Assembly: GCA_964551375.1 (NCBI GenBank)
Contig: CAZKBG010000001.1
Coordinates: forward strand, 490,833 to 554,832
DNA length: 64,000 nt
Direction of reading: 5' to 3'
Source: an uncultured archaeon
GTDB lineage: Archaea; Iainarchaeota; Iainarchaeia; Iainarchaeales; JAAZKV01
Shown: piece after piece, positions 25,694 to 61,661 of the stretch
How positions within the stretch are numbered: position 1 is the stretch's first letter
Layout of the letters: each line of letters begins with the position of its first letter
Made by a program: the position numbers and the translations under genes
Notes under the pieces: generated by a model
Told to the model about the DNA's origin: nothing
The model's input: the letters and a program-made list of their open reading frames with translations, nothing else
The model's database searches: none

Positions 25694-25706
25694 CTTTCAA
25701 TAAGTT

Positions 25707-26438: not shown

Positions 26439-26487
26439 TCATTCACCTTCGTCAAAAATAATTCAAAACTAAAAAGCGCTCATTCTA

Positions 26488-27198: not shown

Positions 27199-27287
27199 CT
27201 AACAACCCCATTTAGTGCTGTTAACTAGCCCCCGCTTTTTTTGTATTTCCCTCACGGGAGCAAATTAAGTCAATTAATATAAATTAA

Positions 27288-32984: not shown

Positions 32985-34667
32985 TCACTTCAAGGCTTTT
33001 TTCTCAAGCCTGTCGGTTAATTCTTTCTCAAACTTTGTCAGCTCTTCAATCTTAGCGTCAATTACAAGCGTCTTTTCCTGCAGAACCCTGTCCGCTGTGG
33101 CGTTTTTCATATTTAATTCATCAATTGCAGAATTAATCTGAGTCAAGCTCTGCTGCATACCGCTCAAAAACTGCTTTCTGAACTCGTCAAGAACCATAAT
33201 CTTCTGTTCCAATGCCTCAGGGGAAATCTTCTTGCTCACAGACTGAAGCCTGTTCAACTCAACCTGCATCTGCGCAATTAATTCATCCGCGCGCTGGATT
33301 GTAAGCTGCTCAATTCTCTGCTCCGCCTGATTCAACATTCCTTCAGCAATATTTTTTTCAAGCTCAAGAGTTTTATTTATCCTTGCATCCATCTGCGACA
33401 AGTGCGCCGATGCTGAATCAATAAAAGCCTGCGCGCTTGACTTGCTTTTAATCAATTCAGAATTCATTTCAACAACAATCTGGGCTTTTGTTCTCTTTAC
33501 TTCCTCAAGCGCAATAGTAACCTGAGAAAGAGAATGCTCCTGCTGTTTTCTTGCGCTTTCAATAGCCGCAAGATTTTCGCTCAACTGCTTGTTGTACTGC
33601 TTGATTTCAGCAATCTTAGCGTCAATTATAAAAACAATTTCCCTCTGCTTCTGCTCCAGCGCCTCTTTATTGCTTGACTGGATTAAATCCTTCTGCGAAT
33701 CCATCAAAACTTTAAACTGATACAATTCTTTTCTAACAGCCTCATCAACTTTCTGCTGAACTTGTGAATCAACATCTTCCTTTAAGTGCTTCATTTCAGC
33801 AAGCTTAGCATTCACAGCAACAACAATTCCTTTCTTCCAAAGCTCCTCAAAATCAGGGCCCATGTCAATATCCCTTGCTGTTTGAGTTGAAAGATTAAAC
33901 GAAGAAAAATCATCCGCGCTTTTTGAATTCGCAAGCTTTGTCGCAGCATCAAAATCAATTTTTGGAACAACAATATCCTTTGGAACTTCTTTCTCTTTAG
34001 GCTTCACTTCAGATTGAGCCTGAGAAGTTTGATTTTGCGCGCTTGAAGAAGTTTGCGCTTGAGGTTGAGAAGTTTGAGTAACTGCAATTTTTGAAACATC
34101 TTTCTGAACTGAAGGATTTTTCTGGGCAGGAGGAGTATAATTTTTCTGCAGATTTTTTAACGCATCGGTTGGAACAGCATTAGTTTTTGAATCAGAACCG
34201 CCTGATTTTTGCCCGCTTGCAAGAGTGTCCTCAACTTTTTCTTCAAACTCATCGCCGTCATCCATTGACTCGCCAGACTGCTCTGCAACATCCTTCATTA
34301 TTTTATCAGCAATATCCCCTTCGCTTTTTGCTTTATCTTGGGGAGAGCTTTTCACAGTAAGCCCGCTTTCAGAAGTTTTTTTTGCAATTGGAATCTGCTT
34401 TACAATCTGCTCATCCATCGGAACATCAGTTCCGTCAAACTCGGGTTTCTCAGGGCCCGCTGGTTTTTTTGCAGCTGTTTTTTGAGAAGAAGCATCAACA
34501 GGAGCATTTGCGGCTTCAACGGATTTTCTTGCTTCGGCGATCAACTGCATTGCCTCATTCTGGTCAATTCCAACATCGTACAAATTGTCGGCAATTTCTT
34601 TATCTGAAACCCCAAGAGCAATTAGCTTTTGGATAGATTCAATGACAGTAGCGCGCTTATCCATCAT
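32985..34667 (-). CDS. Large coiled-coil protein with low-complexity acidic/Ser/Gln-rich linker
   Basis: 560 aa. Short globular N-terminus (MMDKRATVIESIQKLIALGVSDKEIADNLYDVGID), then a long low-complexity linker, then heptad-repeat-rich C-terminal 300 aa. Confidence 0.5.
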   Translation of the reverse strand: MMDKRATVIESIQKLIALGVSDKEIADNLYDVGIDQNEAMQLIAEARKSVEAANAPVDASSQKTAAKKPAGPEKPEFDGTDVPMDEQIVKQIPIAKKTSESGLTVKSSPQDKAKSEGDIADKIMKDVAEQSGESMDDGDEFEEKVEDTLASGQKSGGSDSKTNAVPTDALKNLQKNYTPPAQKNPSVQKDVSKIAVTQTSQPQAQTSSSAQNQTSQAQSEVKPKEKEVPKDIVVPKIDFDAATKLANSKSADDFSSFNLSTQTARDIDMGPDFEELWKKGIVVAVNAKLAEMKHLKEDVDSQVQQKVDEAVRKELYQFKVLMDSQKDLIQSSNKEALEQKQREIVFIIDAKIAEIKQYNKQLSENLAAIESARKQQEHSLSQVTIALEEVKRTKAQIVVEMNSELIKSKSSAQAFIDSASAHLSQMDARINKTLELEKNIAEGMLNQAEQRIEQLTIQRADELIAQMQVELNRLQSVSKKISPEALEQKIMVLDEFRKQFLSGMQQSLTQINSAIDELNMKNATADRVLQEKTLVIDAKIEELTKFEKELTDRLEKKALK

Positions 34668-35008: not shown

Positions 35009-35794
35009 TCATTTTTTCTTAAAAATTGAAAACAACGCCTGCAAAAAGCCGCCTTTTTTAGGAGCAGTGCTTTCTGTAACCTTTAGACCAGTAAGCCTCG
35101 AAGCAATCTTCACCACTTCAACCGCAGCAGGGCAGTCAGGCTTTCTTACAATAACCGGAGAAACTTTCTCCTGCATGAAGCTCTTTCGAACTTCAGGATC
35201 ATAAGGCACAGAACCGTAAATTGGGAGCTCAAGCATATTCGCTATGTCATTTTTTGTTATTTCTCCAGTTTCATTCATCACAAAATTAACAATAACTCCA
35301 ATAACTTTAGAACCAAGCCTTTGCGCAACAATTTTAGTCTTCAACGCATCAGCAATTGCGGGCGAAGTCGGCATAGTAACAATAACAGTTTCCTGCGAAG
35401 CGCTTAACGCGCTTAAAACATTCTTTTCAATTCCAGCAGCAACATCAAGCAAAATATAATCATACTTATCAGTCAACTGGGAAACAACACTTGAGAGCCT
35501 TTCGCTATCCACTCTTTTATAATTATCAAGGCTTAATCCTGAAGGAATAAATCTAACTCCCATCGGACCGTCATAAATAGAATCATGAACCTGAGCTTCT
35601 CCCAAAAGAACATCGTGAAGAGTGATTGGAGAAGACTGCATTCCTAAAAGCAGAGAAAGATTTGCCATTGCAACATCAGCATCGATTAACAAGACTTTTT
35701 GCCCCATTTTTGAAAGAGCAATACCTAAGTTGGCAGTAATAGTAGTTTTTCCTGTTCCGCCTTTTCCTGAAGCAATTGCAATTACTCTCCCCAT
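35009..35794 (-). CDS. MinD/ParA-family P-loop ATPase
   Basis: Deviant Walker A IAIASGKGGTGKTT, LLIDAD and Walker B-like DYILLD. 261 aa. Confidence 0.85.
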   Translation of the reverse strand: MGRVIAIASGKGGTGKTTITANLGIALSKMGQKVLLIDADVAMANLSLLLGMQSSPITLHDVLLGEAQVHDSIYDGPMGVRFIPSGLSLDNYKRVDSERLSSVVSQLTDKYDYILLDVAAGIEKNVLSALSASQETVIVTMPTSPAIADALKTKIVAQRLGSKVIGVIVNFVMNETGEITKNDIANMLELPIYGSVPYDPEVRKSFMQEKVSPVIVRKPDCPAAVEVVKIASRLTGLKVTESTAPKKGGFLQALFSIFKKK

Positions 35795-43438: not shown

Positions 43439-43811
43439 AACTCATGAAAAGAACTTTATTTTTGCAGAAAATGAGCGGTTTGGATTTTGTTTTCACCCAA
43501 ACCCCCAAGCGTTTACTTTTCAAACTCAAAAAGTATTAATCTTTAGGGAGTATTATACTAACAAAGAGAAAACGCCAAAAAATCTTACCGGAAAAATTTG
43601 ATTTATTGGCAAATCCCAACACATTTTCTCTAAAATATAGCTCCAAAGAAAAGAAATCGGGTACGCCAAGGGGAATACTTGCGAACAGACGCCGTGGAAA
43701 AGAGGCGGCGCTGTTAAGAAACTCGATTTCTTTTCACAAAAAATGCACCGGCAAAAAGGGGCAAATAGTATTAAAACAAGAAAATGGGCAAAATGGTTGG
43801 GACTGATTAGG

Positions 43812-45929
43812 ATGTATTCAGATTCGGAAGAAGTAGTAAAGCAGGAAAGCTCGCCTTACTTAGAAAGGTTTGAAGAATTCTTTAACGCTGAATACAAAAA
43901 GCAAATTGAAAGAATTGTAGAAGCATACCCGCAGGAAAGAAGTATAACTGTTGACTTTAAAGCGCTTGAAAAATATGACCCGATTTTAGCAGATGAACTT
44001 CTTGACAAACCGGATGAAGTGCTTGAAGCGGCGCACAACGCAATTCAAAATATTCACATACCAACACTTACTACAGAAATTTTCAGACCGCACGTTCGAT
44101 TCTCAAATCTCCCAAAAGATAGGGAAATTGATGTAAGAAACTTAAGCGCAAAACACCTTGGGAAAATGATAAGCATAGAAGGGCTTGTTAGGCTAATTAC
44201 TGATTCTCTGCCTAAAATAACAATGGCTATATGGAAATGCAAAAGATGCGGAAATGTATATAAAATTCCCCAGAAAAAGCACAAAATATACCCTCCCAAT
44301 ATGTGCGAATGCCACTCAAAGGACTTTGACTTAGAAGAAGACAAGAGCGCATTTATTGATTATCAGAAAATACAAATACAGGAAACGCTTGAAAAGTTAA
44401 AAGGAAATGAACAAGCAACTTATGTTGATGTTTATGTCAGCGATGATTTTGTAAATAGAGTAGCAGCAGGAGACAAAACAAGATTTGTCGGAGTACTCAG
44501 ACTAGTTCCGCCGCAAAAAGACAAAAAAGATATTTACGGCAGATATCTTGAAGCAATACACTTAGAAGAAACTGCCAAAGAATTTTCTGAAGTTGATATT
44601 GCAAAAGAAGAAGAAGAGGAAATAAAAAAACTTGCTAAAAATCCGCAGATTTATGAAATGCTTGCGCAAAGTGTGGCTCCCGCAATTTACGGACATGATA
44701 CAGTAAAAGAAAGCATATCTCTCCAGCTTTTTGGAGGAGTGACAAAACACCTTCCTAACGGACAAAAAATCAGGGGAAACATTCACATCCTACTAATCGG
44801 GGACCCAGGATGCGGAAAATCACAATTACTTCAGGCAACAAATAACATAGCTCCAAAATCAATTTACATTTCAGGAAAAACAACAAGTGGAGTAGGACTA
44901 ACCGCATCCGCTGTAAAGGACGAATTTGGAGAAGGAGGATGGACGCTAAAAGCAGGAGCGCTTGTATTAAGCTCAGGCGGAGTATGCATGGCAGATGAAC
45001 TTGACAAAATGGCGCCTGAAGATAGGAGCGCGCTGCATGAAGCAATGGAACAGGGAATGATTTCAGTAGCAAAAGCAGGAATTGTGGCAAGATTTAAAGC
45101 AGACACTTCACTACTTGCAGCAGCAAATCCAAAATTTTCAAGATTTGACAAATTCACTCCTTTTTTAGAACAAATTGACCTACCTGCTTCACTAATCTCA
45201 AGATTTGACTTATTTTTCATGATAAGAGATATTCTTGATAGAACTCAAGACCAGAAAATTTCAAGACACATACTTGAAACCCACCAAAGCGGGGAAAAAT
45301 TAATGCAAGCGCAGCAAAAAGGAATAGCTTTGGCAAAAGAAGAAAAAGAAGAAATTGACAAAAAAACAAAGCCAATAATCGACATGATGGTATTTAGAAA
45401 ATACGTTTCATTCGCAAGGCAAAAATGCTACCCAATACTAAGCCCTGAAGCAATGGAAACAATTTCTGACTTTTATGTAAGTCTGCGTGACCAGGGAAGA
45501 AGCCAAGGCTCATACGCAGCAACAGCAAGACAGCTTGAAGGACTTGTAAGACTTGCAGAAGGAAGCGCAAGAGTAAGACTAAGCGATGTAGTTGAAGTGC
45601 AGGACGCCCAAAGAGCAATAAGACTTGTAAAAAAATCCTTAGAAGAAACAGTAACGGACCCTGACACCGGAAGAATCGACATTGATATTGTAACAACAGG
45701 AGTGACACAGGCAAAACAAAATGCAATCTCAACCGTGCTTAGAATTATTAAAGAACAAATGGCAAACGGAATTGACATGGTTCCAGTGGAAGAAGTTGTA
45801 ACACAAGGAATGGAAAAAGGGCTTGACGAACAAAAAATCAATCAGGCGCTTGACGAGCTTGAAAAGAAAGGAGAAATATACAAACCAAGACACCACTTTG
45901 TAAAACCCACAACTGAAAAGAAAAGCTAA
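43812..45929 (+). CDS. mcm: MCM replicative helicase
   Basis: Zn finger CKRCGN...CECHS. Walker A IHILLIGDPGCGKSQLL, Walker B CMADELDKM and arginine finger SRFDL. Start placed at the internal Met (MYSDSEE), not the longer ORF-track start at 43743. Confidence 0.95.
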   Translation: MYSDSEEVVKQESSPYLERFEEFFNAEYKKQIERIVEAYPQERSITVDFKALEKYDPILADELLDKPDEVLEAAHNAIQNIHIPTLTTEIFRPHVRFSNLPKDREIDVRNLSAKHLGKMISIEGLVRLITDSLPKITMAIWKCKRCGNVYKIPQKKHKIYPPNMCECHSKDFDLEEDKSAFIDYQKIQIQETLEKLKGNEQATYVDVYVSDDFVNRVAAGDKTRFVGVLRLVPPQKDKKDIYGRYLEAIHLEETAKEFSEVDIAKEEEEEIKKLAKNPQIYEMLAQSVAPAIYGHDTVKESISLQLFGGVTKHLPNGQKIRGNIHILLIGDPGCGKSQLLQATNNIAPKSIYISGKTTSGVGLTASAVKDEFGEGGWTLKAGALVLSSGGVCMADELDKMAPEDRSALHEAMEQGMISVAKAGIVARFKADTSLLAAANPKFSRFDKFTPFLEQIDLPASLISRFDLFFMIRDILDRTQDQKISRHILETHQSGEKLMQAQQKGIALAKEEKEEIDKKTKPIIDMMVFRKYVSFARQKCYPILSPEAMETISDFYVSLRDQGRSQGSYAATARQLEGLVRLAEGSARVRLSDVVEVQDAQRAIRLVKKSLEETVTDPDTGRIDIDIVTTGVTQAKQNAISTVLRIIKEQMANGIDMVPVEEVVTQGMEKGLDEQKINQALDELEKKGEIYKPRHHFVKPTTEKKS

Positions 45930-46026: not shown

Positions 46027-46968
46027 TTGAGAAAAATGGCAAAACCAACCAGAACAAGAACAATTAAGAAAAAGCCAGCGCATGCGCCACACAAAACACC
46101 TGCTTTAAAGCACGCCCAAAAACCTGTTTCAAAAACCGAAGCAAACGGCGGCACTTGGATAAATAATGAAATCTTCCTAAAACTTGCAACCGTATTTTTG
46201 GCGACAGAAGTACTTGGATTATTTGTTGCAAAAGCATTATTTGCTCAGGGACTCCAGCAGGCACCGTTTGCTGAAGATATTAATGATATTTTAAATGCAT
46301 TCTACTTATTCGGCGTAATAATTTTCATGACAATAGTAATACTTCTTGCGCTCAAAATGAAGCACACAAAGAAAATGCTTTGGGTTGTTGAAGCGCTTGC
46401 CATATTTGCAACATCAACAATAGTGATGAGCGCCTTTTTCCCGACAAACGACTTAGTAGTTCTTGGAACAGTAGCGCTTTTGCTAATACTAAGATACACA
46501 AACCGCAAAAATTTAATGATAAGAAATTTAGCAAGCGTAATCGCAGTAGCAGGCGCAGGCGCCTTTTTAGGAATCTCGCTTGGATTATTCCCAGTAGTTG
46601 CATTTGCAATAATACTTGCAATATACGACATAATCGCAGTGTTTTACACAAAACACATGGTGACAATCGGAAAACAGTCGCTTGAAAACAATTTTGCATT
46701 CACAATTGCAATGCCGACAAAAGAACACAAATTTGAACTTGGAAACGGGGACTTAGTAATTCCATTAATGATAGCATCAAGCGTGCTTGTAAACGGGCCA
46801 TTTTTAAATAATGGAATAATGGCAGGAATCTCCCTCTCAGCAAGCTACATAGGACTTGTACTAAGCATTTATTCAGTATCCAAATGGAAAAAACCAATGC
46901 CGGCGCTCCCCCCACAAACCGCTCTCATAGTAATCGCAATCCTAATCGGGCTTGCTCTTGGGCTTTAA
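46027..46968 (+). CDS. Presenilin/signal-peptide-peptidase family (A22) intramembrane aspartyl protease homolog
   Basis: The family's catalytic motifs appear in order: LAIYDIIAVF (YD), ELGNGDLVIP (GxGD) and MPALPP (PAL). About 9 hydrophobic helices. Confidence 0.75.
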   Translation: MRKMAKPTRTRTIKKKPAHAPHKTPALKHAQKPVSKTEANGGTWINNEIFLKLATVFLATEVLGLFVAKALFAQGLQQAPFAEDINDILNAFYLFGVIIFMTIVILLALKMKHTKKMLWVVEALAIFATSTIVMSAFFPTNDLVVLGTVALLLILRYTNRKNLMIRNLASVIAVAGAGAFLGISLGLFPVVAFAIILAIYDIIAVFYTKHMVTIGKQSLENNFAFTIAMPTKEHKFELGNGDLVIPLMIASSVLVNGPFLNNGIMAGISLSASYIGLVLSIYSVSKWKKPMPALPPQTALIVIAILIGLALGL

Positions 46969-47051
46969 ATAAATAAAACCGCCTGCAAAAGAGCCTAAAT
47001 TTGATTTATATACGTTTTGCTGGGCAATTAAATAGTAGAAGTGAGCCAACA

Positions 47052-47459
47052 ATGCAGAAATATGAAGATTTACTTGTAAAAGCATACCACTCAATACCGC
47101 AAAAGGCGCTAAGCCACGAAAGATTTGAAATACCAAGAGTAGAATCATTCATTCAGGGCGGAAAAACTATTGTAAGAGGATTTAATATTTTAATTAAAGA
47201 CATGCGAAGGGACAAAAAGCATTTCATAAAATGGCTGAACAAAGAAACCGCAGCCCCGATCAGCGAAGGAAACAACCAGCTCTTAATTAATGGAAAAGTA
47301 GGAGCAATACAACTCAACAAATTAATTGAAGCATATTTCAACCAATATGTTTTGTGCTCAGAATGCAAAAAACCGGACACAAAAGTTGTTTCACAGGACG
47401 GAATAAGAATGCTCAAATGCGAAGCGTGCGGAGCAATAAAACCAGTATCAGGACTATAA
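47052..47459 (+). CDS. Translation initiation factor 2 beta subunit (aIF2-beta)
   Basis: MQKYEDLLVKAYHSIP ... RFEIP ... C-terminal zinc ribbon CSECKKPDTKVV...LKCEACGA. Start moved to the internal Met. Confidence 0.85.
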   Translation: MQKYEDLLVKAYHSIPQKALSHERFEIPRVESFIQGGKTIVRGFNILIKDMRRDKKHFIKWLNKETAAPISEGNNQLLINGKVGAIQLNKLIEAYFNQYVLCSECKKPDTKVVSQDGIRMLKCEACGAIKPVSGL

Positions 47460-47543: not shown

Positions 47544-47843
47544 GTGATATTGATGATAGCAAAAAAACACGAGATTGAATACAAAACAATTGTCGGAGTA
47601 TGCGACAAAGAACACCTTGGAAAAACTTTCACCGAAGGCGAAATAGAATTCACTGCAAGCAAAAAATTCTACGAAGGAGAAGAAATAACAGAAGAAGAGT
47701 TAAACAAAATATTAGACGAAGCGGATTCGGTAAACCTGTTCGGAAACAAATGCGTCGGAATTGCGGAGAAAAAAGGGCTTGTTAGCGAAAAAGGAACGCT
47801 GAAAATAAAAGGAATCAAGCACGCGCAAGTATACAAAATGTAA
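47544..47843 (+). CDS. Hypothetical conserved small protein
   Basis: 99-aa ORF between aIF2-beta and aIF1A. No motif recognised. Confidence 0.4.
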   Translation: MILMIAKKHEIEYKTIVGVCDKEHLGKTFTEGEIEFTASKKFYEGEEITEEELNKILDEADSVNLFGNKCVGIAEKKGLVSEKGTLKIKGIKHAQVYKM

Positions 47844-47882: not shown

Positions 47883-48302
47883 TTGAAGAATAAGAATAAG
47901 TTAATTGGAGATGAAATATTGGCAAATTTTAACAGTCAGAAGAGAAAAAACCAGATGAACAAGCGAAAGAGCTTTGGCTCGGCTCCGCAGCCAACCACTG
48001 AAGTTCAAGAAATGGGCTACACAAGAATGAGACTGCCAAACCCAAGCGAGCTTGAAGAATTTGCTATTGTAACACAATTAATGGGCTCAAACCAGGTAAA
48101 AGCAATGTGCGAAGACGGCACAGAAAGCCAGTTTAGAATACCAGGAAAACTTATGAAAAAAGTATGGCTAAGAGAAAATGATATTATAATTATCCAAAGA
48201 TGGGAATTTCAGCCAAGCAAAGGAAATGTTGTTTGGAGATACCTTGGAAACCAAGTGGAATGGCTGAAAAGAAACGGAAAACTTGCAAAACTAGGGCTTT
48301 AA
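47883..48302 (+). CDS. Translation initiation factor 1A (aIF1A)
   Basis: S1-like OB core (FAIVTQLMGSNQVKAMCEDGTESQFRIPGKLMKKVWLRENDIIIIQRWEF ... VVWRY) is canonical eIF1A. Confidence 0.85.
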   Translation: MKNKNKLIGDEILANFNSQKRKNQMNKRKSFGSAPQPTTEVQEMGYTRMRLPNPSELEEFAIVTQLMGSNQVKAMCEDGTESQFRIPGKLMKKVWLRENDIIIIQRWEFQPSKGNVVWRYLGNQVEWLKRNGKLAKLGL

Positions 48303-48358
48303 TTCTAATAAACCAGCACCAAGCTAAGATATAAAAAGTAAAAATCGCTTACTAAATA

Positions 48359-49672
48359 ATGCAAAACAAAGGACAGGGAGCAATAGAATATCTGCTTATA
48401 ATCGGCTCGGCAATACTTGTCGTGGCAATTGTAATAATTGCAATAACAGGAGCGCTTGGCACAGGGCAAACTCAAGTAAAAGACTCAAACCCGGGAAAAA
48501 CAAACAACCCATTAGTTAAGTTAAAAGACGACATGCAGGGGCTGGAAAGAATTGAATTTACTTTTCCTCCAGGAACTACTGAAGTAACTCTACCTCTTGC
48601 AGGAATTGAATACCCAACGCTTAGCGATATTTTTTCCAATGCCCCGGGAGGAACGCAAGTGCTTCTTGTAAGAACCGGAATTAATTATATAAAGAATCCA
48701 GACGACACATGGTTTCCAGACGCAAGCCAAGTACAAGTCACAAACGCTGAAAACTTTAGAGTGACAACCCCGCAGGAATTTTTAATTTCAGTGGCAGGAA
48801 TAGGATACACTACAGACTGCCAAAGCAACATTAACTTTTTAGGAACAATAAATTCAAGACCGACCTGTTGTGATTATTACCCTTTAATTGCAGGATGCCT
48901 TGACCAAAATCTTACAAGCTTTTGGAAGCTTGATGAAACAAGCGGTAAAATATTTTCAGATTTTAAAAGCACAGCAGACGGACAATGCTTTGACATAAAC
49001 TGCCCGTCCCCCACAACCGGACTTTTTGGAACAGGAGGACAATTATTTACTCCAAACAGACAAAATAACCAATACATCCAAATACTAAACCCGACAAGAT
49101 GGAATGACTCAAAAGTAACATATGTAATATGGTTCTACCCAATTGATCAAAACACAAACACAATAGTAAGCTTTCTTTACGATTTAGGCGGAGGAGCAAA
49201 TAGCCCTGATAACTACATGCACGGACGCGGAGGAATATACATTGTGCCCGCAGGAAACGTTGAAGGATATGTAATGAATTACTCGCCGGGAAATGCAAAC
49301 CCCGCCCTAAGCTGCTATGAAAACGGATTTGGAGTAAAGACAACAAATAGAATTAATCTCAACCAATGGAATATGCTTGCCTTCCAAGCGGATTACACAG
49401 GAGTAACAAAAGGGAAATTATACCTAAACGGAGTATTGAGCATTTCAGGAACCAGCCAAAAACAACTGCAGTGCAATAATGAAACAAACATAATGTGGAT
49501 TGGCAGAAGAAAAACAGGCGGAGACGGAAAACTATACCTTGACGGAGAGCATCGATTAGTAAATGATTTCAATGGAATAATAGATGAGGTAGCAGTATGG
49601 AAACGCCACTTAACAGATGCGGAAATAATTGCTCTTTGGAATAACGGCAGCGGAAGAAGGGTTCCTGGCTAA
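48359..49672 (+). CDS. Class III signal peptide (archaeal type IV pilin-like, DUF361-type) protein with C-terminal LamG/concanavalin-like domain
   Basis: N-terminus MQNKG|QGAIEYLLIIGSAILVVAIVIIAI has a prepilin peptidase site KG|Q with Glu at +5 and a hydrophobic helix. C-terminal ~200 aa end in the LamG_3-type motif (GKLYLDGEHRLVNDFNGIIDEVAVWKRHLTDAEIIALWN). Confidence 0.7.
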   Translation: MQNKGQGAIEYLLIIGSAILVVAIVIIAITGALGTGQTQVKDSNPGKTNNPLVKLKDDMQGLERIEFTFPPGTTEVTLPLAGIEYPTLSDIFSNAPGGTQVLLVRTGINYIKNPDDTWFPDASQVQVTNAENFRVTTPQEFLISVAGIGYTTDCQSNINFLGTINSRPTCCDYYPLIAGCLDQNLTSFWKLDETSGKIFSDFKSTADGQCFDINCPSPTTGLFGTGGQLFTPNRQNNQYIQILNPTRWNDSKVTYVIWFYPIDQNTNTIVSFLYDLGGGANSPDNYMHGRGGIYIVPAGNVEGYVMNYSPGNANPALSCYENGFGVKTTNRINLNQWNMLAFQADYTGVTKGKLYLNGVLSISGTSQKQLQCNNETNIMWIGRRKTGGDGKLYLDGEHRLVNDFNGIIDEVAVWKRHLTDAEIIALWNNGSGRRVPG

Positions 49673-49725
49673 AAACCAAAAACATTACTCTAAAAATCCA
49701 AAAGCAACCCTAAAAAAGCCTCTGA

Positions 49726-50544
49726 ATGACAATATATCTAATGGATGTAAGCACACTAACGGATAAAGACACATTAATCGACAGAATGAAAAGAGAAAAG
49801 CGATTAATCAAAGACGAGCACACAAGAAGCGTGTTCAATAAAGTTTTTGACAATGCAACAATTGCAGCTGTGCATGAACTTGCAAGAAAAAAATACTTTG
49901 AAGAGCTTGAATTTGTAATATCCACAGGAAAAGAAGGAAACGTATTTAGATGCGTATCGGGAGACAACTACTACGCGCTGAAAATATACAAAGTTGATAC
50001 TTCTGACTTTAAGCACATGACCGAATACATCATCGGAGACGAGAGATTTAAAGATGTGAGAAAAGACAAGCTTGAAATTGTAAAACTTTGGACAAAAAAA
50101 GAATTTAGAAACCTTGAAGACTTTACAAAAGCAAAAATAAGAGTGCCTCTTCCAATAGGAACAAGCAGAAACTGCCTGTTAATGGAATTAATCGGAAAAA
50201 ACGGGGAAGCCGCTCCAAGAGCAAAAGAAAAACCATTTATTGACATGCAGGCGGCTTATGAAAAAATGTGCGAATACATGGCAAAAATGATAAATGCCAA
50301 GTTAGTGCACTCGGATTTAAGCGAATACAATATTTTGAACAACGATGAAGAACTTGTAATAATTGATGTAGGACAGGCAGTAACAACCATGCACCCGATG
50401 GCAAAAACATTCTTTGAAAGAGATGTACAAAATATTTCAAAATGGTTCGCAAAAAACGGAGTGGCAACTGACTATGACATAATGTACCTTGCAATAAAAG
50501 AAAAAAGCGCGAAATTAAAAGACAAAAAATCAGCTAAAAAGTAA
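49726..50544 (+). CDS. RIO-type serine/threonine kinase (Rio1-like)
   Basis: STGKEGNVFRC (P-loop), ALKIYKV, catalytic loop VHSDLSEYNIL and IIDVGQAV (DFG-equivalent). Confidence 0.85.
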   Translation: MTIYLMDVSTLTDKDTLIDRMKREKRLIKDEHTRSVFNKVFDNATIAAVHELARKKYFEELEFVISTGKEGNVFRCVSGDNYYALKIYKVDTSDFKHMTEYIIGDERFKDVRKDKLEIVKLWTKKEFRNLEDFTKAKIRVPLPIGTSRNCLLMELIGKNGEAAPRAKEKPFIDMQAAYEKMCEYMAKMINAKLVHSDLSEYNILNNDEELVIIDVGQAVTTMHPMAKTFFERDVQNISKWFAKNGVATDYDIMYLAIKEKSAKLKDKKSAKK

Positions 50545-50652: not shown

Positions 50653-51180
50653 GTGATAAAAATGGAAGAACTAATTAGAATCCCTGAAGACAGAGTGGGC
50701 GTGCTCATAGGCCCTAAGGGAAGCGTTAAGCGAAAGATTGAATCAAAAACAAAAGTTACGCTTGACATTGACTCCGCAGAAGGAGAAGTAACTGTTGACG
50801 GAGAAGGCGAAGGATATTTTAAAGCTCATGACATTGTAAAAGCAATCGGGCGAGGATTTTCTCCTGAGAAAGCATTCACTCTGTTGAAGGATGATTACTT
50901 ACTGAAAATAATTGACATTACAGATTACACAGGAAAAAATACTTCAAACCAGAAAGCAAAAAGAGGAAGGGTTATTGGAAGGCACGGACTTGCAAGGCTT
51001 GAAATAGAAAAAAGAACACACTGCTTAATTTCAGTGCATGGAAAAACTGTTGCAATAATAGGACTTGCGGGAGAAATTGACACCGCGGTTGATGCTGTGC
51101 AAATGCTTCTTGAAGGCGCAAAGCACGAAACAGTAGAACACATCTTATTTGGCGTTAAAAAAGAAAGATTTGAACTTTAA
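50653..51180 (+). CDS. KH-domain RNA-binding protein (archaeal Dim2/Pno1-like)
   Basis: Two KH-like units with GxxG loops (LIGPKGSVKRKIE; VIGRHGLARLEIE). Canonical neighbour of the RIO kinase. Confidence 0.7.
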   Translation: MIKMEELIRIPEDRVGVLIGPKGSVKRKIESKTKVTLDIDSAEGEVTVDGEGEGYFKAHDIVKAIGRGFSPEKAFTLLKDDYLLKIIDITDYTGKNTSNQKAKRGRVIGRHGLARLEIEKRTHCLISVHGKTVAIIGLAGEIDTAVDAVQMLLEGAKHETVEHILFGVKKERFEL

Positions 51181-51347: not shown

Positions 51348-53063
51348 TTGCCTGAAAAGAAACCAAAAGAAGTTGACGCAACAGTAGCAATGGATGCGGC
51401 AACAAAACACCTTGACAATGAGTTTAAGGAACACTCCGTAGCCGAATTCTTTAAGAAAAACAAGCAAATGCTTGGATTATACGGAAAAGTAAGAACATTG
51501 ACAATGGTAATCCACGAATATGTTTCTAATTCTCTTGATGCATGCGAAGAAACAGGAATACTTCCAAACATTGATGTAAAAATTGACGAACTTGGAGAAG
51601 AATATTACGAAGTAACAGTTACCGACAACGGACCCGGAATAAGCCAGGCGAATGTTGGAAAAGCATTTGGAAAATTACTCGCAGGAACAAAATTTCACAG
51701 AATGATGCAGTCAAGAGGGCAGCAGGGAATCGGAGCATCAGGATGCACAATGCTATCACAAATGACTACTGGAAAAGCATCAAAAGTAATTACAGGGAGA
51801 CAGGACGGCAAAGCAATTTCACTTGAACTTACAATTGACCCAAAAATGAACGAGCCAAAAATCAGCAACGTAAAAGAACTTGACAAAGAATTTAGAGGAA
51901 CTGCAATACAAGCAAAATTTAAGGGAACACTTTACAGAGACTCCGACCAGGGGCCGCTTGAATACTTAAGAAGAACCGCAATTGCAAACCCGCACGCGCA
52001 GCTTTCATTTAGAGACCCTGCAGGACAGAAATTCGTATTTAAGCGAACTCATAATCAAATACCTGAAAGACCAGCTGAAATCAAGCCGCACCCAAAAGGA
52101 ACAACAGTTGACGACATACTTTCATACTGCAAAACATCAAAAGGCAGAACTGTAGGAACATTCCTTTCAAATGATTTTGACAGAATGGGAGCAAAAGCTC
52201 TTGAAGAAGTAAAAAAGAAAGTTCACTTTGACTTAAACAAGGACCCAAAAACTCTTACTTGGGAAGAAGCGGAAGAAATTATTAAAGCATTCAAATCAAT
52301 CGACTTCATCGCTCCAACTACTGACGCGCTTAGACCAATAACTGAAGACCAAATCAGAAAATCGCTTCAAAGCATAGTTCAGCCAGAATTTTTAACAGTA
52401 CTAACAAGAAAACCAGCAGTATACGCTGGAGGATACCCGTTCCAAGTTGAAATTGCAATCGCATACGGCGGAAACGCGGGAAGAAAAGTCGGCGAACAGA
52501 CACAAATGGAAATAATGAGATTTGCAAACAGAGTTCCACTTTTATTTGACACGGGAAACTGCGCGCTAACAAAAGCAGTGCAGACAATTGACTGGAAGAG
52601 ATATGACATAAAGGACCCTGAAACTGCGCCGGTAACAGTATTCATTAATTTTATTTCAGTTCACATCCCTTACACAGGAGCGGGAAAACAGGCAATCGCA
52701 GATGAAGAAGATGTGCTTGAAGAAATAAGACTTGCTTTAATGCAGACAGGAAGAAAAGCAGGAATTTATATCGCACACAAAAGAAGAGAAGCTGAAAACC
52801 AGCAAAAAAGACAGATGTTTTACAAATACATTCCTGAAATTACTAGAGCATTAAGCACAATAACAAAAGCAAGCGAACCGGACCTTCGAAAAAACATGGA
52901 AAAAATGGTTCTGACAAAATTAAAACTTGAAGAGGCAAAAGAAGCTCAAGAAAAAGCAAGAGTGGACAAAGTGCTTAAAGACGATGATAATAGTTTTATA
53001 ACAAAGCCAAAAGCGGAGAAAGCTAAGGCTGAAGAAAAAGCAAAGGGAGATAAGAAGAAGTAA
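51348..53063 (+). CDS. top6B: DNA topoisomerase VI subunit B
   Basis: GHKL ATPase motifs (EYVSNSLDACEE; TVTDNGPGIS; GQQGIGASG), transducer domain and a Lys-rich C-terminal tail. Confidence 0.9.
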   Translation: MPEKKPKEVDATVAMDAATKHLDNEFKEHSVAEFFKKNKQMLGLYGKVRTLTMVIHEYVSNSLDACEETGILPNIDVKIDELGEEYYEVTVTDNGPGISQANVGKAFGKLLAGTKFHRMMQSRGQQGIGASGCTMLSQMTTGKASKVITGRQDGKAISLELTIDPKMNEPKISNVKELDKEFRGTAIQAKFKGTLYRDSDQGPLEYLRRTAIANPHAQLSFRDPAGQKFVFKRTHNQIPERPAEIKPHPKGTTVDDILSYCKTSKGRTVGTFLSNDFDRMGAKALEEVKKKVHFDLNKDPKTLTWEEAEEIIKAFKSIDFIAPTTDALRPITEDQIRKSLQSIVQPEFLTVLTRKPAVYAGGYPFQVEIAIAYGGNAGRKVGEQTQMEIMRFANRVPLLFDTGNCALTKAVQTIDWKRYDIKDPETAPVTVFINFISVHIPYTGAGKQAIADEEDVLEEIRLALMQTGRKAGIYIAHKRREAENQQKRQMFYKYIPEITRALSTITKASEPDLRKNMEKMVLTKLKLEEAKEAQEKARVDKVLKDDDNSFITKPKAEKAKAEEKAKGDKKK

Positions 53064-53077
53064 CAAGGTGTATTTAC

Positions 53078-54232
53078 TTGGCGAAAAAGGTGAAGAATAT
53101 GGCGGGCGAAAAAAGAAAAGCAAAGACAGTTGAAAAGGTAAGCCCTAAGGAAATTGCCGACAGAATAAGCGGAACAGCAAAAAGCATGGTCACACAAATC
53201 AACAAACTTGAAGACCCGCAGTTTACTACAATGCAGAGAGGAAAAAGCAATGTTGTTTGGGACGAGAAAAAAGGATACTTGGGACTTGGCGAAAAAGAAG
53301 TTACACGAACATTCCTTAACATTGCGCACGCAAGAAAATTCATGCAAACAAGCATGATAATGGCAAAAACACAGGAATACTTGCTGCACAACAAGACAGC
53401 GTCTATTCGTGAGATTTATTACGAATTAAAACACACAGTGGTTGATACTAAAGAAAACACTTTTGAAGGGCAGGACGAGAGCGACCCAATCATAGTTGAT
53501 CTTGAACACAGCGTTGACACTATCAGAGAAAAACTAAACCTGCACGCTAATCCCAAGGGAACACTTTACGGGGATGTAACTCTGCTTGATAGAATGCACC
53601 ACAATGATAAATTCAACGCGTCAAAACTGGGAAGAGGCGGATGGAGCATAATGTCAAGAGTTGAGCCTGAAGAAATTGAAATCGTTGACTCAAACGCAGA
53701 ATACCTGCTTGTAGCTGAAACCGAAGCAATTTTTGAAAGACTTATTGAAGAAGGATTTCCAAAAGCAAACAAATGCCTATTAATCGGAACAGGGGGACAG
53801 GCAGCAAGAGGAGCAAGAAGATTAATCCACAGAATACACCACGAGCTTGACTTGCCGACAATTGTATTCACAGACGGGGACCCTTACGGATGGTACATTT
53901 ACTCAGTAATAAAGCAGGGCTCAATGGCTCTTGCAGCGCACTCTGAATTCATGTCGGTTCCTGACGCAAAATATGTTGGAATGACTATTGATGATGTGAA
54001 AGAATACAAACTTGAAGCAGTAACAGAACACATGACTGACGGAGATATTAAAAGAGCAAAAGAAATGCTTGCTTACCCATGGTTCCAGAACAAAGAATGG
54101 CAGGCACAGCTGAAAAAAGCAATTGAAGAAAAAGTTAGAATCGAGCAGCAGGCTCTTGCAAACAAAAGACTTGACTTTGTTGCGACACAATACCTGCCTG
54201 AAAAGATTAAGAACAAAATATTTTTGCCTTAA
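53078..54232 (+). CDS. top6A: DNA topoisomerase VI subunit A (Spo11 homolog)
   Basis: 384 aa immediately downstream of top6B. Toprim-region motifs (LLVAETEAIFERL ... FTDGDPYGWYIY). Confidence 0.9.
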   Translation: MAKKVKNMAGEKRKAKTVEKVSPKEIADRISGTAKSMVTQINKLEDPQFTTMQRGKSNVVWDEKKGYLGLGEKEVTRTFLNIAHARKFMQTSMIMAKTQEYLLHNKTASIREIYYELKHTVVDTKENTFEGQDESDPIIVDLEHSVDTIREKLNLHANPKGTLYGDVTLLDRMHHNDKFNASKLGRGGWSIMSRVEPEEIEIVDSNAEYLLVAETEAIFERLIEEGFPKANKCLLIGTGGQAARGARRLIHRIHHELDLPTIVFTDGDPYGWYIYSVIKQGSMALAAHSEFMSVPDAKYVGMTIDDVKEYKLEAVTEHMTDGDIKRAKEMLAYPWFQNKEWQAQLKKAIEEKVRIEQQALANKRLDFVATQYLPEKIKNKIFLP

Positions 54233-57880: not shown

Positions 57881-59413
57881 ATGAAAATGACTGAACACAA
57901 CAAGAAACTTACGCATGCAACAATCAAAATAAACAATATGGTTTGCACAAGCTGCGAAACAATCATTGAAAAAAGCGTGAAGAAGAAAAACGGGATTGAA
58001 AGAATAAATGTTGATTACAATAATGGGGAAGCAAAAGTTACTTATGATTCTTCAAAAGCGACTCTTAAGGAAATTTATGACGCAGTAAGAGAAGCAGGAT
58101 ATGAAGTTGTTGAAGGCGATGAAAAAAGAAGAATCAGCCCTACACACATTGCCCTTGGAATATTTGTGGCAATAATGCTTGTATTTGGATACTTAGCAGT
58201 ATCAAGCACGCTTGAAGGAATGAACATATCAATACCCCAAATAGATGCAGGCACAAGCGCAATAATAATTTTCTTTGTAGGACTTTTAACAGGATTTCAC
58301 TGCATAGGAATGTGCGGAGGATTTGTATTAGGATACACCGCAGAAGCAAGAAAAGCGAACCCAAAATCGCTTAACCTTGGAGCGCACGCCCAATATTCAA
58401 TTGGAAAAATAATCTCCTATTCAATAATAGGAGGAATATTTGGACTTGTTGGAAGCATATTTGTATTCAGCCCAACACTAAGAGCCATGATCGCAATAAT
58501 TGCGGGAATATTTTTAATATTTTACGCACTAAAAATGCTTAATGTTCACCCATCCTTAAGAAAACTAAGCCTTCCAAGAGGACTCTTTGACAGGCTAAGA
58601 ATCGGACCGCTAAAGAAAAGCTCAAACCCGCTTGCAATCGGACTTGCTAACGGATTATTTATCGCATGCGGACCATTACAAGCCATGTACATCCTTGCCA
58701 TGGCAACTGGCTCATTCACGGGAGGAGCAATAATATTATTTGCGTTTGCAATCGGAACACTAATCCCAATGATGGGTTTTGGAATCTTCGCCTCATTCAT
58801 AAGCAGAGGAATGCAAAACAGCATAGTAAGGATTTCGGCAATAATAGTTCTTGTAATGGGAATACTAATGATAAACAACGGATTAGTTCTGACAGGAAAT
58901 AATGTAACTTCCATATTTGCCACCCCAAACTTAAACGCTTCAAATACACAAGGCAACAACACTAATCTTGCAATTTCAAATAACCCAGCCGATTCAGGAA
59001 CTCAAACAAGCAACGGACCAGGATATCAAGTGATAAACATGGATGTAGTAGGCACAGGATACTCGCCAAACAGCTTTGTGCTCAAAACAGGAGTTCCTGT
59101 TAAATGGGTAATTAATGGAAAAGAAGTCACAGGATGCAACGGAGGAATAATAGTTCCAGCATACAACCTTGATTTTAAGATAAAAAAAGGAATACAAACA
59201 ATCGAATTCACCCCTACAAAAGCAGGAACAATAAACTGGAGCTGCTGGATGGGAATGATACCAGGACAATTTATTGTAAGAGATGATGTGAGCATTGACA
59301 AAGACGGAAAAGTTGTTCTAAGCCCAGCTATTGAAAAAGAAGCGGTTGCTAGCGCAGCCGCTGCACCAAAAGCAAGCGGACACTCATGCGGATGCGGGAT
59401 GAAAAGCGCATAA
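57881..59413 (+). CDS. Three-part fusion: N-terminal HMA domain + DsbD/CcdA-like (DsbD_2) membrane domain + C-terminal cupredoxin-like domain
   Basis: HMA motif NMVCTSCE. Polytopic membrane core with Cys motifs in helices (TGFHCIGMCGGF; FIACGPLQA). Gly/Asn/Thr-rich linker, then a beta-rich domain with copper-ligand-like residues (GCNGG ... WSCWMGMIPGQF) and a terminal CGCG. Confidence 0.6.
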   Translation: MKMTEHNKKLTHATIKINNMVCTSCETIIEKSVKKKNGIERINVDYNNGEAKVTYDSSKATLKEIYDAVREAGYEVVEGDEKRRISPTHIALGIFVAIMLVFGYLAVSSTLEGMNISIPQIDAGTSAIIIFFVGLLTGFHCIGMCGGFVLGYTAEARKANPKSLNLGAHAQYSIGKIISYSIIGGIFGLVGSIFVFSPTLRAMIAIIAGIFLIFYALKMLNVHPSLRKLSLPRGLFDRLRIGPLKKSSNPLAIGLANGLFIACGPLQAMYILAMATGSFTGGAIILFAFAIGTLIPMMGFGIFASFISRGMQNSIVRISAIIVLVMGILMINNGLVLTGNNVTSIFATPNLNASNTQGNNTNLAISNNPADSGTQTSNGPGYQVINMDVVGTGYSPNSFVLKTGVPVKWVINGKEVTGCNGGIIVPAYNLDFKIKKGIQTIEFTPTKAGTINWSCWMGMIPGQFIVRDDVSIDKDGKVVLSPAIEKEAVASAAAAPKASGHSCGCGMKSA

Positions 59414-59462: not shown

Positions 59463-61661
59463 ATGAAAAAAATCACACTACAAGTAGGCGGAATGCACTG
59501 CGCAAGCTGTGCTGTGATAATCAATAAAACCCTGTCAAATAAAGAGGGCGTGAAAGAAGCTAATGTTAATTACTCTAATTCAAAAGCAACAATAGAATTT
59601 GATGAAACCAAGCTAAAGGATACAGAGTTAATTAATGCGATAAAAGGAGCAGGTTATGACGCAACACTCCTTGCAAAAAGAATTGACGCAGAAAAACAAA
59701 ATACGCTTCAAACTAAAGAAATCAAACACATTAGAAATACTTTTTTACTCAGCTTAACATTCGCACTCCCCGCATTCATAATAGGAATGGTATTAATGCA
59801 AATAGGAATTGAACTCCCACACATGGGGCTGATTCTTTTTGTTCTAGCAACCCCAGTTCAATTCATTGTAGGAAAACAATTTTATTTAGGAGCATGGGCG
59901 GCTCTGAAAAATAAAACAGCAAGCATGGACACATTAATTGCGGTAGGCACAAGCGCAGCATATTTGCTTAGTTTGTATAATATTTTATTCAACCCGACTG
60001 CGGGGCAATACTTTGAAACAAGCGCAATACTAATTACACTTGTAATTCTAGGAAAATGGCTTGAAGCAATAGCAAAAAGCAAAACAAGCGAAGCAATAAA
60101 AAAACTAATGAATTTAACTCCAAAAACAGCAAATGTAATTCGAAACCGCAAAGAAATTACAATACCTGTTGATGACATCAAACTCGGGGATTTAATTATT
60201 GTAAAACCCGGCGAAAGAATCGCAGTTGACGGCGAAATAACAAGCGGACACTCAGCAATTGATGAAAGCATGATAACAGGAGAAAGCATTCCTGTGGAAA
60301 AGAAAACAGGAGACAGCGTAATAGGGGGAACAATAAATAAACACGGAACAATTACATTCAAAGCAACAAAAATCGGCGAAAACACCACACTTGCGCACAT
60401 AATAAAACTAATTGAAGACGCTCAAGGCAAAAAAGCGCCAATACAAAGATACGCTGATACGATAAGCGGATACTTTGTTCCAGCAGTTATTGCAATTGCA
60501 ATATGCACATTTATTGTTTGGTACTTTATTTTCAATATGGGATTTTCATTCAGCATCTTAACAAGCGTAGCAGTGCTTGTAATTGCATGCCCTTGCGCAT
60601 TAGGACTAGCCACCCCAACTTCAATAATGGTTGGAACTGGGCTAGGCGCAAAATACGGGATATTAATTAAAGGAGGAGATGCTCTTGAAACTGCCCACAA
60701 ATTAAAATATGTTATTTTTGACAAAACAGGAACTATTACAAAAGGAGTTCCTGAAGTAACCGAAATAATACCTTTAGGAAAAATCAGCGCTCAAAAAGTT
60801 CTTGAAATAGCAGCAAGCATGGAAAAAACAAGCGAACACCCTCTTGCTGATGCAATTGTGGAAAAGGCAAGGCAGGATAAAATTGAGCTTAGCAAAGTTC
60901 TGCACTTTAAAGCAATAGTCGGGCACGGAATTGAAGGAGAAATAAACAAAAAGAAATATTACCTGGGAAACACAAAACTTCTGCTTAAAATCGGAATTAA
61001 ATCCGATGAAATAAAAGAAAAAATGGCAAAACTTGAAAGCGAAGGAAAAACAGTAATGATACTGGCTGATTCAAAGCAAGCGCTTGGATTAATCGCAGCA
61101 GCCGACGCAATAAAAGAAACTTCAAAAGAGGCTGTTTCTTCGCTTGAAAAACTTGGAATAGAAGTTTATATGATTACTGGAGACAACGAAAGAACAGCAA
61201 GAGCAATCGCAACACAAGCGGGAATAAAAAATATATTTGCTGAAGTTCTTCCTGCAGACAAGGCAAATTATGTGAAAAAACTTCAGGAAAACGGAAAATA
61301 CAAAGTAGCAATGGTGGGGGACGGGATAAATGACTCTCCAGCGCTTGCCCAAGCGGATATTGGAATAGCAATGGGAAGCGGAACTGATGTAGCAATGGAA
61401 ACAGGAAATATAGTACTAATGCAGAATAACCTAAAAGATGTGTCAAAAGCAATCAAACTCTCAAGAATTACAATAGGAAAAATAAAACAAAACATGTTCT
61501 GGGCATTGTTCTACAACGTGGTTGGAATACCAATCGCAGCAGGAGTGCTGTACTTTTCATTAGGAATACTCCTATCCCCAATAATCGCAGGCGGAGCAAT
61601 GGCGCTAAGCTCAGTATCCGTTGTAACCAATTCTCTTTTAATGAAAAGAAGAAAATTGTAA
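59463..61661 (+). CDS. copA: Copper-translocating P1B-type ATPase
   Basis: HMA GMHCASC, TGES, CPC (ACPCALGLATP), DKTGTIT phosphorylation site, GDGINDSPAL. Confidence 0.95.
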   Translation: MKKITLQVGGMHCASCAVIINKTLSNKEGVKEANVNYSNSKATIEFDETKLKDTELINAIKGAGYDATLLAKRIDAEKQNTLQTKEIKHIRNTFLLSLTFALPAFIIGMVLMQIGIELPHMGLILFVLATPVQFIVGKQFYLGAWAALKNKTASMDTLIAVGTSAAYLLSLYNILFNPTAGQYFETSAILITLVILGKWLEAIAKSKTSEAIKKLMNLTPKTANVIRNRKEITIPVDDIKLGDLIIVKPGERIAVDGEITSGHSAIDESMITGESIPVEKKTGDSVIGGTINKHGTITFKATKIGENTTLAHIIKLIEDAQGKKAPIQRYADTISGYFVPAVIAIAICTFIVWYFIFNMGFSFSILTSVAVLVIACPCALGLATPTSIMVGTGLGAKYGILIKGGDALETAHKLKYVIFDKTGTITKGVPEVTEIIPLGKISAQKVLEIAASMEKTSEHPLADAIVEKARQDKIELSKVLHFKAIVGHGIEGEINKKKYYLGNTKLLLKIGIKSDEIKEKMAKLESEGKTVMILADSKQALGLIAAADAIKETSKEAVSSLEKLGIEVYMITGDNERTARAIATQAGIKNIFAEVLPADKANYVKKLQENGKYKVAMVGDGINDSPALAQADIGIAMGSGTDVAMETGNIVLMQNNLKDVSKAIKLSRITIGKIKQNMFWALFYNVVGIPIAAGVLYFSLGILLSPIIAGGAMALSSVSVVTNSLLMKRRKL

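Follow-up and report, generated by a model that had tools for sequence, protein, structure and literature searches.

Introduction

Modular pilins are well established in bacteria, where PilB (with a vWA domain) and PilC (with a concanavalin-like lectin) of S. sanguinis form an adhesive tip complex (PMC9934059; PMC8179133), and a survey of bacterial modular pilins, in which archaea are unmentioned, places PF13385 among the commonest modules fused to the pilin N-terminus (PMC8179133). Among archaea, an expansion of LamG-like jelly-roll proteins was noted in Mia14/ARMAN, with some of them tied to type IV pilus loci and a role in host interaction proposed (PMC5498576); signal peptide-bearing LamG proteins have been listed for Nanohaloarchaeota as well. 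As for the assembly machinery, the archaeal type IV filament (TFF) 'system 1', characterised by two platform genes, a dedicated peptidase and a leading pilin without globular domain, occurs in methanogens (the Epd pilus) and in DPANN archaea (bioRxiv 10.64898/2026.04.22.720090). Here, we report the analysis of a 64,000-nucleotide stretch of DNA from an uncultured archaeon of the order Iainarchaeales (GCA_964551375.1, contig CAZKBG010000001.1, positions 490,833 to 554,832; hereafter, the window) and of a gene in it for a protein of 437 amino acids (aa; hereafter, the target), which lies between the genes for aIF1A and RIO kinase and couples an archaeal class III signal to a LamG-type head.

On the grounds of its domain content, its genomic placement, the machinery genes and the identity of its N-terminus to pilins of pilus operons, all of which were observed, we favour with moderate confidence the interpretation of the target as a modular minor pilin that belongs to an Epd/Tad-like type IV pilus (the TFF 'system 1' of archaea, with two platform genes); it is probably an adhesin. 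The closest described counterpart is PilC (7oa8; PMC9934059), which likewise couples a class III signal and a short pilin module to a concanavalin/LamG-type lectin, both proteins being proposed as adhesins displayed on a filament. In contrast to PilC and other bacterial modular pilins, the signal of the target is archaeal (PF04021, Gln at +1) and not the N-methylation motif IPR012902, its pilin module is a helix alone and lacks the beta-sheet head of a pilin, the protein contains an orphan domain and a four-Cys connector in addition, and it is encoded outside the pilus locus. No sequence homology between the two is detectable beyond the jelly-roll, and glycan binding and tip location of the target are predictions from its sequence.

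The DPANN proteins of approximately 300 aa with class III signal and LamG_3 domain share with the target the invariant N-terminus QGAIEYLLII, the LamG_3 head and a scattered placement among housekeeping genes, whereas the target and its ortholog differ from them in an extra segment of about 125 aa and in the unique aIF1A-RIO site. The pilus operons of related DPANN archaea resemble Epd pili (Methanococcus maripaludis) and Tad/Flp systems in having one ATPase, two TadC-like platform genes, a dedicated A24 peptidase and, in most cases, a headless first pilin; unlike in those systems, the DPANN operon is put in system 1 by gene content alone, its major pilin is deduced from position and size, and the target is not part of the operon. 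The Sulfolobales 'bindosome' also places a binding domain behind a pilin-type signal and helix, with genes away from those for assembly, but the domain there is of the ABC-type solute-binding kind instead of LamG, and no ABC transporter adjoins the target.

The concept of a lectin-bearing pilin and the LamG surface proteins of DPANN archaea are thus known already, and such an architecture is common among DPANN archaea; the target refines what has been proposed before and opens no new category. New are the lineage-specific site, the orphan middle domain with the four-Cys connector, and a stem nearly identical to the helix-only operon pilin. In the literature searched, there was no explicit statement that DPANN LamG proteins carry the shaft pilin's own helix, nor of the three-part variant represented by the target. 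For DPANN archaea, of which few cultivated models exist, little has been learnt about the means of recognising and attaching to partner cells or surfaces. The target provides a concrete, testable candidate for such a factor, and it would be a direct archaeal equivalent of the bacterial 'modular pilin' strategy, with a helix-only Epd/Tad-like pilin as its basis.

Domain architecture of the target

The open reading frame (ORF) occupies positions 48359-49672 (+), encodes 437 aa and opens with MQNKGQGAIEYLLIIGSAILVVAIVIIAITGALG. The following parts were delineated by alignment, AlphaFold2 (AF2) modelling with its predicted local distance difference test (pLDDT) scores, hydropathy and profile searches:

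48359-48373 (+): predicted leader MQNKG, putatively cut off by the A24 prepilin peptidase (PF04021 coverage; family alignment)
48374-48460 (+): mature hydrophobic alpha-helix QGAIEYLLIIGSAILVVAIVIIAITGALG, residues 6-34, predicted pilin assembly module (alignment, AF2 helix 7-34, hydropathy)
48461-48532 (+): polar linker, residues 35-58 (TGQTQVKDSNPGKTNNPLVKLKDD...), pLDDT <50, no regular structure, variable in length and sequence among homologs
48533-48805 (+): orphan middle domain, residues ~59-149, predicted small beta-sandwich (AF2, alignment)
48806-48904 (+): Cys-rich connector, residues ~150-182 (C154, C170, C171, C180), with the motif DCxxNINxLG...CCxxYPLIxxCL
48905-49651 (+): LamG/concanavalin-like jelly-roll head, residues ~183-431, predicted non-catalytic ligand-binding module (Pfam, PHROG, AF2, Foldseek)

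The preliminary description of this DNA, made by inspection of the letters and ORFs, had assigned a class III signal with Glu at +5 to the N-terminus and a LamG_3-type motif with a LamG/concanavalin domain to the C-terminus, and both assignments were borne out. The Pfam model PF04021 (Class_IIIsignal) matched residues 3-27 with 26.3 bits against a gathering cut-off of 23.7 (E 6.7e-6). The N-terminus reads MQNKG followed by QGAIEYLLII, with Lys at -2, Gly at -1, Gln at +1 and Glu at +5; cleavage after Gly5 is predicted by the established class III signal rule, which is general knowledge and is embodied in the Pfam model. Only one hydrophobic segment, at residues ~5-38, was seen in the Kyte-Doolittle profile of the target, and a six-frame motif scan revealed no other ORF with a class III signal in the window. 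Membership in TafC (Tat-fimbriae) was considered and rejected, as the NCBIfam model NF052521 gave 11.5 bits (E 0.12) against at least 410 bits needed.

Laminin_G_3 (PF13385) covered residues 236-423 with 59.6 bits (cut-off 27.6, E 5.2e-16; 148 of 151 profile positions), in agreement with a profile search of the PDB and with Foldseek. The C-terminal motif IIDEVAVWKRHLTDAEIIALWN is present, and F404, G406, I408, W414, R416 and E422 are invariant or nearly so across 13 family members. The full-length AF2 model, computed from 13 sequences, had a mean pLDDT of 61, with a helix at 7-34, a beta-sandwich from ~183 to 432 and an unreliable middle part; within the head, 10-residue block means were mostly 66-92, with a few blocks at 53-61. 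The structures in the PDB returned by Foldseek for the head comprised domain 4 of AbnA (5hon_A, E 2.2e-10, template modelling (TM) score 0.75 on the target), the Hc fragments of tetanus and botulinum toxins and lectin domains of trans-sialidases, with 7oa8, the lectin-bearing minor pilin PilC of S. sanguinis, at rank 33 (E 7.6e-9). Similarly, the family profile searched against PDB sequences hit the S-layer-domain protein 4qvs (E 3e-10), pentraxins, carbohydrate-binding modules and lectin domains of sialidases, and tetanus toxin Hc. The head is, by prediction from the models, a lectin-type jelly-roll of non-catalytic nature.

The middle domain is absent from the family members of ~300 aa and has almost no sequence relatives among 1.84 billion representatives: the ortholog in the sister genome (P0002) and, weakly, three further proteins (P0084, P0023 and P0028), P0084 being the sole clear one besides P0002. 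When it was modelled on its own with four relatives, the best of five AF2 models showed a small beta-sandwich (pLDDT 74-94) and the other four were poor; no PDB fold match to the isolated model was found at E <= 1e-3. The four cysteines of the connector (C154, C170, C171, C180) are conserved in both P0002 and P0084, and all eight cysteines of the protein (154, 170, 171, 180, 210, 215, 319, 372) are conserved in P0002. This even total suggests extracellular disulfides.

In another part of the window, at 57881-59413 and 59463-61661 (+), a transmembrane protein with HMA and DsbD_2 domains adjoins a P-type (E1-E2) ATPase with HMA domain. The pair resembles a metal-handling or thiol-disulfide module and is possibly relevant to extracellular disulfides.

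Pilus operons and the origin of the stem

Pilus operons came to light only when metagenomes were scanned with the family alignment: of the 80 loci obtained, 11 contained a FlaI/CpaF-like ATPase 2-4 kb upstream of a class III gene on the same strand. The full operon was seen in locus L061, as follows:

L061, first: T2SSE ATPase, two T2SSF, a 59-aa pilin and a 109-aa pilin (Pfam above cut-off; the first short pilin from the comparison of operon pilins)
L061, next: a 57-aa pilin-like ORF (motif scan only)
L061, next: Peptidase_A24 with archaeal C-terminal domains (Pfam above cut-off)
L061, next: a 149-aa pilin, a 104-aa pilin (18.1 bits, below the 23.7 cut-off) and TctA

This order recurs in the other operon loci wherever contigs reach far enough. 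The preliminary description had made its idea of a filament-anchored protein depend on a prepilin peptidase and pilus machinery in the genome, and both an ATPase and an A24 peptidase were found. A profile of nine operon ATPases retrieved P0102, a T2SSE ATPase of 570 aa, 77% identical to the operon ATPase, from a contig of 946,135 bp, the length of the contig that carries the target, and a profile of six peptidases retrieved P0231, with 370 aa, 64% identity and PF01478, PF06819 and PF06847 (Peptidase_A24 and Arc_PepC), also from a 946,135-bp contig. P0231 was moreover present on a Logan contig (L100) of run SRR12133403, the run that gave the target contig (L001). Downstream of it come two ORFs, of 150 and 106 aa, that take the places of the L061 minor pilins and have no Pfam match on record, and then a 114-aa ORF, TctA and JAB, much as in L061. 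The T2SSE ATPase is attributed to the window genome through P0102, and the ATPase together with the two T2SSF platform genes was seen in the sister genome GCA_964544205.1, where P0205, a mate of P0102 in its 90%-identity cluster, stands in the order ProRS-ATPase-T2SSF-T2SSF.

No pilus machinery was found inside the 64-kb window. Two candidates were rejected: the 560-aa ORF at 32985-34667 (-) near MinD, tried as a platform protein, is a low-complexity coiled-coil protein, and the KaiC-like ATPase at 7713-8486 (-), tried as T2SSE, is of the single-domain KaiC-like type (182 bits).

Ten operons were compared for the pilin that comes first behind the platform genes. In seven of them it is a precursor of 58-63 aa with ~54 mature residues, which is essentially one helix with no globular head; the remaining three have a precursor of 94-102 aa (~89-97 mature residues) whose tail is rich in Cys. 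Over the first 32 residues of its mature form, QGAIEYLLIIGSAILVVAIVIIAITGALGTGQ (6-37), the target is identical at 25-28 of 32 positions to the first pilin of these ten DPANN pilus operons, so that the target can be described as a short pilin with a long C-terminal extension.

A direct connection of the remaining parts to a pilus operon is provided by P0084 (GCA_026397035.1; L101), which has the same helix, middle domain, Cys connector and the start of the LamG domain, with 32% identity over 224 residues. It is encoded directly after an intein-containing ATPase, two T2SSF, a 46-aa pilin and a 59-aa pilin, and hence the three-part architecture is physically tied to a pilus operon in a relative. 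The aIF1A-RIO junction of the same genome (L005) is empty. The copy in the window may descend from an operon gene of the P0084 type, the identity being only 32%.

A few further observations on these operons were made. At L101 6206-7338, P0084 stops at position 7030 and the LamG domain goes on in another frame to the contig end (...FKGGIQEVAVW), indicative of either a frameshifted pseudogene or an assembly error. Many DPANN pilus ATPases (P0122, P0129, P0135, P0142, P0146, P0155) are of ~990 aa with Pfam domains of inteins, LAGLIDADG and HTH_3, none of which occurs in P0102; the operon ATPase at L101 1365-3085 (GCA_026397035.1) has the same intein domains, its called product being only 573 aa.

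Relatives of the target and their genomic placement

A search of 5.8 billion proteins returned 70 matches to the target. Besides P0002, the best of them were proteins of ~300 aa from DPANN metagenome-assembled genomes (MAGs; Diapherotrites/Iainarchaeum, Nanoarchaeota or 'archaeon') with PF04021 and PF13385 and 28-35% identity, which, where named, appear in NCBI as 'LamG-like jellyroll fold domain-containing protein'. In an alignment of 13 homologs, Q6-I15 (QGAIEYLLII) and with it Glu at +5 are invariant, Gln is always at +1, and Gly or Ala always at -1. The helix of the short relatives runs almost directly into LamG, whereas in the target and P0002 the two are separated by ~125 additional residues. 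Other matches share only the N-terminal ~40 residues and bear GLUG, right-handed beta-helix, Ig-like or pentraxin/sialidase-like heads. The 946,135-bp contig carries, besides the target, a second protein with a class III signal, P0037 (432 aa, PF04021, no LamG).

The preliminary description had regarded a surface pilin-like gene in a housekeeping cluster as unexpected, and this part of it did not hold. Five relatives (P0008, P0016, P0011, P0066 and P0047) sit among genes for tRNA synthetases, chaperonin, TFIIB, POR and the mevalonate pathway, some as tandem pairs, and no pilus genes occur within the 10-kb flanks of these five. Every relative examined was so placed, and such a location is consequently the rule in these compact genomes and not an anomaly; the combination of class III signal and LamG, for its part, constitutes a large DPANN family that had been noticed before.

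At L003 202-1107 and 1186-2484, P0037, with a Cys-rich C-terminus, lies beside a Thr-rich ORF of at least 301 aa that has no captured N-terminal signal, and adjoins the gene for ribosomal protein S19e.

Proposed mode of action and competing explanations

As a modular minor pilin, the target would enter the membrane as a precursor through its class III signal, and the A24 prepilin peptidase, encoded elsewhere in the genome, would cut it after Gly5. Since the mature helix is nearly identical to that of the operon short pilin, the ATPase and TadC platform would be expected to polymerise the target into the same filament as the short pilin. The linker, the orphan beta domain, the disulfide-rich connector and the LamG head would then project from the core of the filament, either on its shaft or at its tip, with the head binding a glycan or glycoprotein ligand on another cell or surface, which would give the protein its presumed role in cell-cell attachment. 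The gene itself may represent an independently transcribed addition in the common ancestor with the sister, probably from the pilus operon or a paralogous copy, placed between aIF1A and the RIO promoter.

Several points weigh against this interpretation. The target lies outside the pilus operon, as do the LamG relatives of ~300 aa that were examined, and a head of 400 residues may, for steric reasons, be confined to the tip of a filament made of helix-only subunits or be incorporated rarely. LamG domains bind proteins and lipids too, and not glycans alone. The ATPase P0102 is placed in the genome of the target through a contig of identical size, and P0231 likewise, with the shared run in addition. 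The helix was compared with operons of related DPANN, the window genome's own short pilin not being among them. Finally, host dependence of this Iainarchaeum-type organism is an assumption.

As the main rival explanation, the target could be a membrane-anchored surface lectin or binding protein, similar to the Sulfolobus 'bindosome', in which the class III signal would serve for processing and anchoring only and LamG would capture glycans or other substrates at the cell surface, the protein being no pilus subunit; we consider this possible, although rather unlikely. Class III proteins with non-pilin domains occur widely in archaea, and their genes are often located apart from filament loci (bioRxiv 10.64898/2026.04.22.720090), the target and most of its LamG relatives being likewise outside pilus operons, and the head is bulky when set against helix-only operon pilins of ~54 residues. 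However, the identity of 25-28 out of 32 helix residues reaches well past the cleavage site, which suggests constraint beyond recognition by the peptidase; Glu at +5 is strictly kept; P0084, of the same architecture, is encoded in a pilus operon directly after a short pilin; and even the Sulfolobus proteins are proposed to assemble via their N-terminal helices (bioRxiv 10.64898/2026.04.22.720090).

Alternatively, the target could be the principal subunit of a separate filament coated in LamG domains instead of a minor subunit of the operon pilus. Such a role would be in keeping with its own promoter in a constitutively needed gene cluster, with the retained Glu at +5, which would allow stacking below other subunits, and with the ~300-aa relatives, in which LamG directly follows the helix like the globular head of a pilin. 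It is nevertheless very unlikely: one ATPase only (P0102) came from the 946,135-bp contig among the matches listed, the match of the helix to the operon short pilin makes a shared filament the simpler solution, the long flexible linker and two extra domains are unlike known major pilins, and the gene is confined to two genomes in contrast to the broadly conserved pilus operon.

Least credible of all is the view that the target degrades glycans as a secreted or anchored concanavalin-like glucanase, or that it is a receptor-binding protein of mobile-element or viral derivation integrated at the junction: although the concanavalin-like superfamily includes glucanases, residues 183-431 align weakly (E 8.4e-8) to phrog_18503, an uncharacterised phage protein family, and the junction has taken foreign genes at least twice (including the methyltransferase in L004), the GH16-type catalytic motif ExDxxE is absent from the target, its best matches are non-catalytic lectin modules, its N-terminus is a native DPANN pilin helix, its GC and GC3 are typical of the window, and no repeats, integrase or tRNA flank it.

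Returning to the target as a modular minor pilin, a broader and tentative proposal can be put forward, which we regard as possible but doubtful. In this group of DPANN archaea, a single pilin helix of almost invariant sequence, QGAIEYLLIIGAAILVVAIVI, may act as a universal adaptor, which would form the shaft on its own and, when fused, carry interchangeable LamG, GLUG, beta-helix, Ig-like or pentraxin/sialidase-like heads. The target would then be a recently invented head with a new-fold middle domain, fast-diverging and with its own promoter in a translation/ribosome-biogenesis cluster, that sets the host or substrate specificity of the lineage.

Insertion between aIF1A and RIO1

The genes on either side of the target gave Pfam matches above the cut-off in all cases, and the description of the flanks as a conserved neighbourhood of aIF2beta, a small ORF, aIF1A, RIO and a KH/Dim2-like protein was confirmed by colinearity in relatives. 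The features of this part of the window are:

43743-45929: MCM (Pfam above cut-off)
46027-46968: presenilin-type signal peptide peptidase (SPP; Pfam above cut-off)
47001-47459: aIF2beta (Pfam above cut-off)
47544-47843: DUF424, the small ORF (Pfam above cut-off)
47883-48302 (+): aIF1A, upstream flank of the insertion (Pfam eIF-1a, 59 bits); abuts RIO in seven related loci
48330-48337 (+): TATA-box-like element TATAAAAA, 22-29 nt before the ATG of the target (read from the sequence)
49726-50544 (+): RIO1 kinase, downstream flank (Pfam RIO1, 191 bits)
50653-51180: two-KH Dim2/KRR1-like protein (Pfam above cut-off)
51348-53063 and 53078-54232: ORFs taken to be Topo VI B and A, by the preliminary description and by 72-90% identity to colinear ORFs of the relatives

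Relatives of the RIO kinase were searched at one genome per species, and the proteins of the window were mapped onto the ten loci so obtained. MAGs of the 'Candidatus Iainarchaeum'/'ainarchaeum' type, whose RIO kinases are 66-82% identical, retain the order MCM-SPP-aIF2beta-DUF424-aIF1A-RIO-KH-TopoVIB-TopoVIA. The junction between aIF1A and RIO was without a gene in seven loci (L005, L007, L008, L009, L010, L011 and the Micrarchaeia MAG L012), being ~20-215 bp of non-coding DNA. Among the ten loci, the target gene was present only in L013 (the same contig as L002, GCA_964544205.1), the closest relative, with MCM 91% identical; its ortholog there, P0002, has 438 aa and is 61% identical to the target over the full length. 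With the junction empty in seven relatives and the gene shared with the closest sister only, the insertion is lineage-specific; given the outgroups, the simplest history is that the gene was gained once, in the ancestor shared by the window organism and its sister.

In L004 (5116-5991), the same junction holds a gene for a 291-aa S-adenosylmethionine (SAM) methyltransferase (Methyltransf_11, 91.9 bits), and the junction has therefore taken lineage-specific genes at least twice. The right junction of the insertion aligns with the empty junction of L005, with the RIO promoter region at ~49699-49723 retained; the gene thus landed between the aIF1A stop and the RIO promoter. Conservation in the junction alignment was confined to the RIO promoter side and to the left junction of the sister. 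No flanking direct or inverted repeats, integrase or tRNA were found at the insertion, and the composition of the target is ordinary, within one standard deviation of the window (GC 0.406 against 0.381 +/- 0.025; GC at third codon positions (GC3) 0.338 against 0.333 +/- 0.041).

The TATA-like element upstream of the target is conserved in the sister genome as TATAATAA. TATA-like hexamers upstream of the genes of the window peak at -29 to -27, and the element of the target is at this modal position; it is likely to be the target's own promoter, which would imply a leaderless mRNA or one with a very short leader. Together with the ordinary composition, this position of the element is in keeping with a native gene. 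The clustering of the hexamers across the window, in its own right, suggests that many mRNAs of this organism are leaderless.

The target and P0002 are 61% identical, as compared with 76-94% for the flanking genes. Divergence faster than that of neighbouring genes is typical of surface recognition proteins and would be expected for a specificity determinant.

As a separate observation on these loci, tblastn showed MCM to be split at residue ~357 by ~0.9-1.1 kb in L007 (1150-2072), L009 (783-1885) and L011 (860-1962), probably by an intein; MCM of the window is uninterrupted.

Other features of the window

A canonical archaeal exosome/proteasome run, with two RNase PH subunits, Rrp4, SBDS and the proteasome alpha subunit, is located at 24054-28010 (-). 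The protein of 771 aa encoded at 8564-10879 (-) is a fusion of a class I lysyl-tRNA synthetase with a B3/4 domain at its C-terminus, a domain known in the beta subunit of PheRS. The KaiC-like ATPase at 7713-8486 (-) adjoins a 213-aa ORF with hydrophobic N-terminus (7049-7690), near which is also a 128-aa ORF (6647-7033), neither of them with a Pfam match.

The 560-aa protein at 32985-34667 (-) has a long low-complexity acidic and Ser-Gln-rich region, a C-terminal coiled coil and no Pfam match; a MinD/ParA-type ATPase is encoded near it at 35009-35794 (-), with two small ORFs lacking Pfam matches beyond. Finally, the ORFs at 11021-11884 and 11931-12929 (+), with basic N-termini and no significant Pfam match, are tandem paralogs (22% identity, E 1.6e-12).

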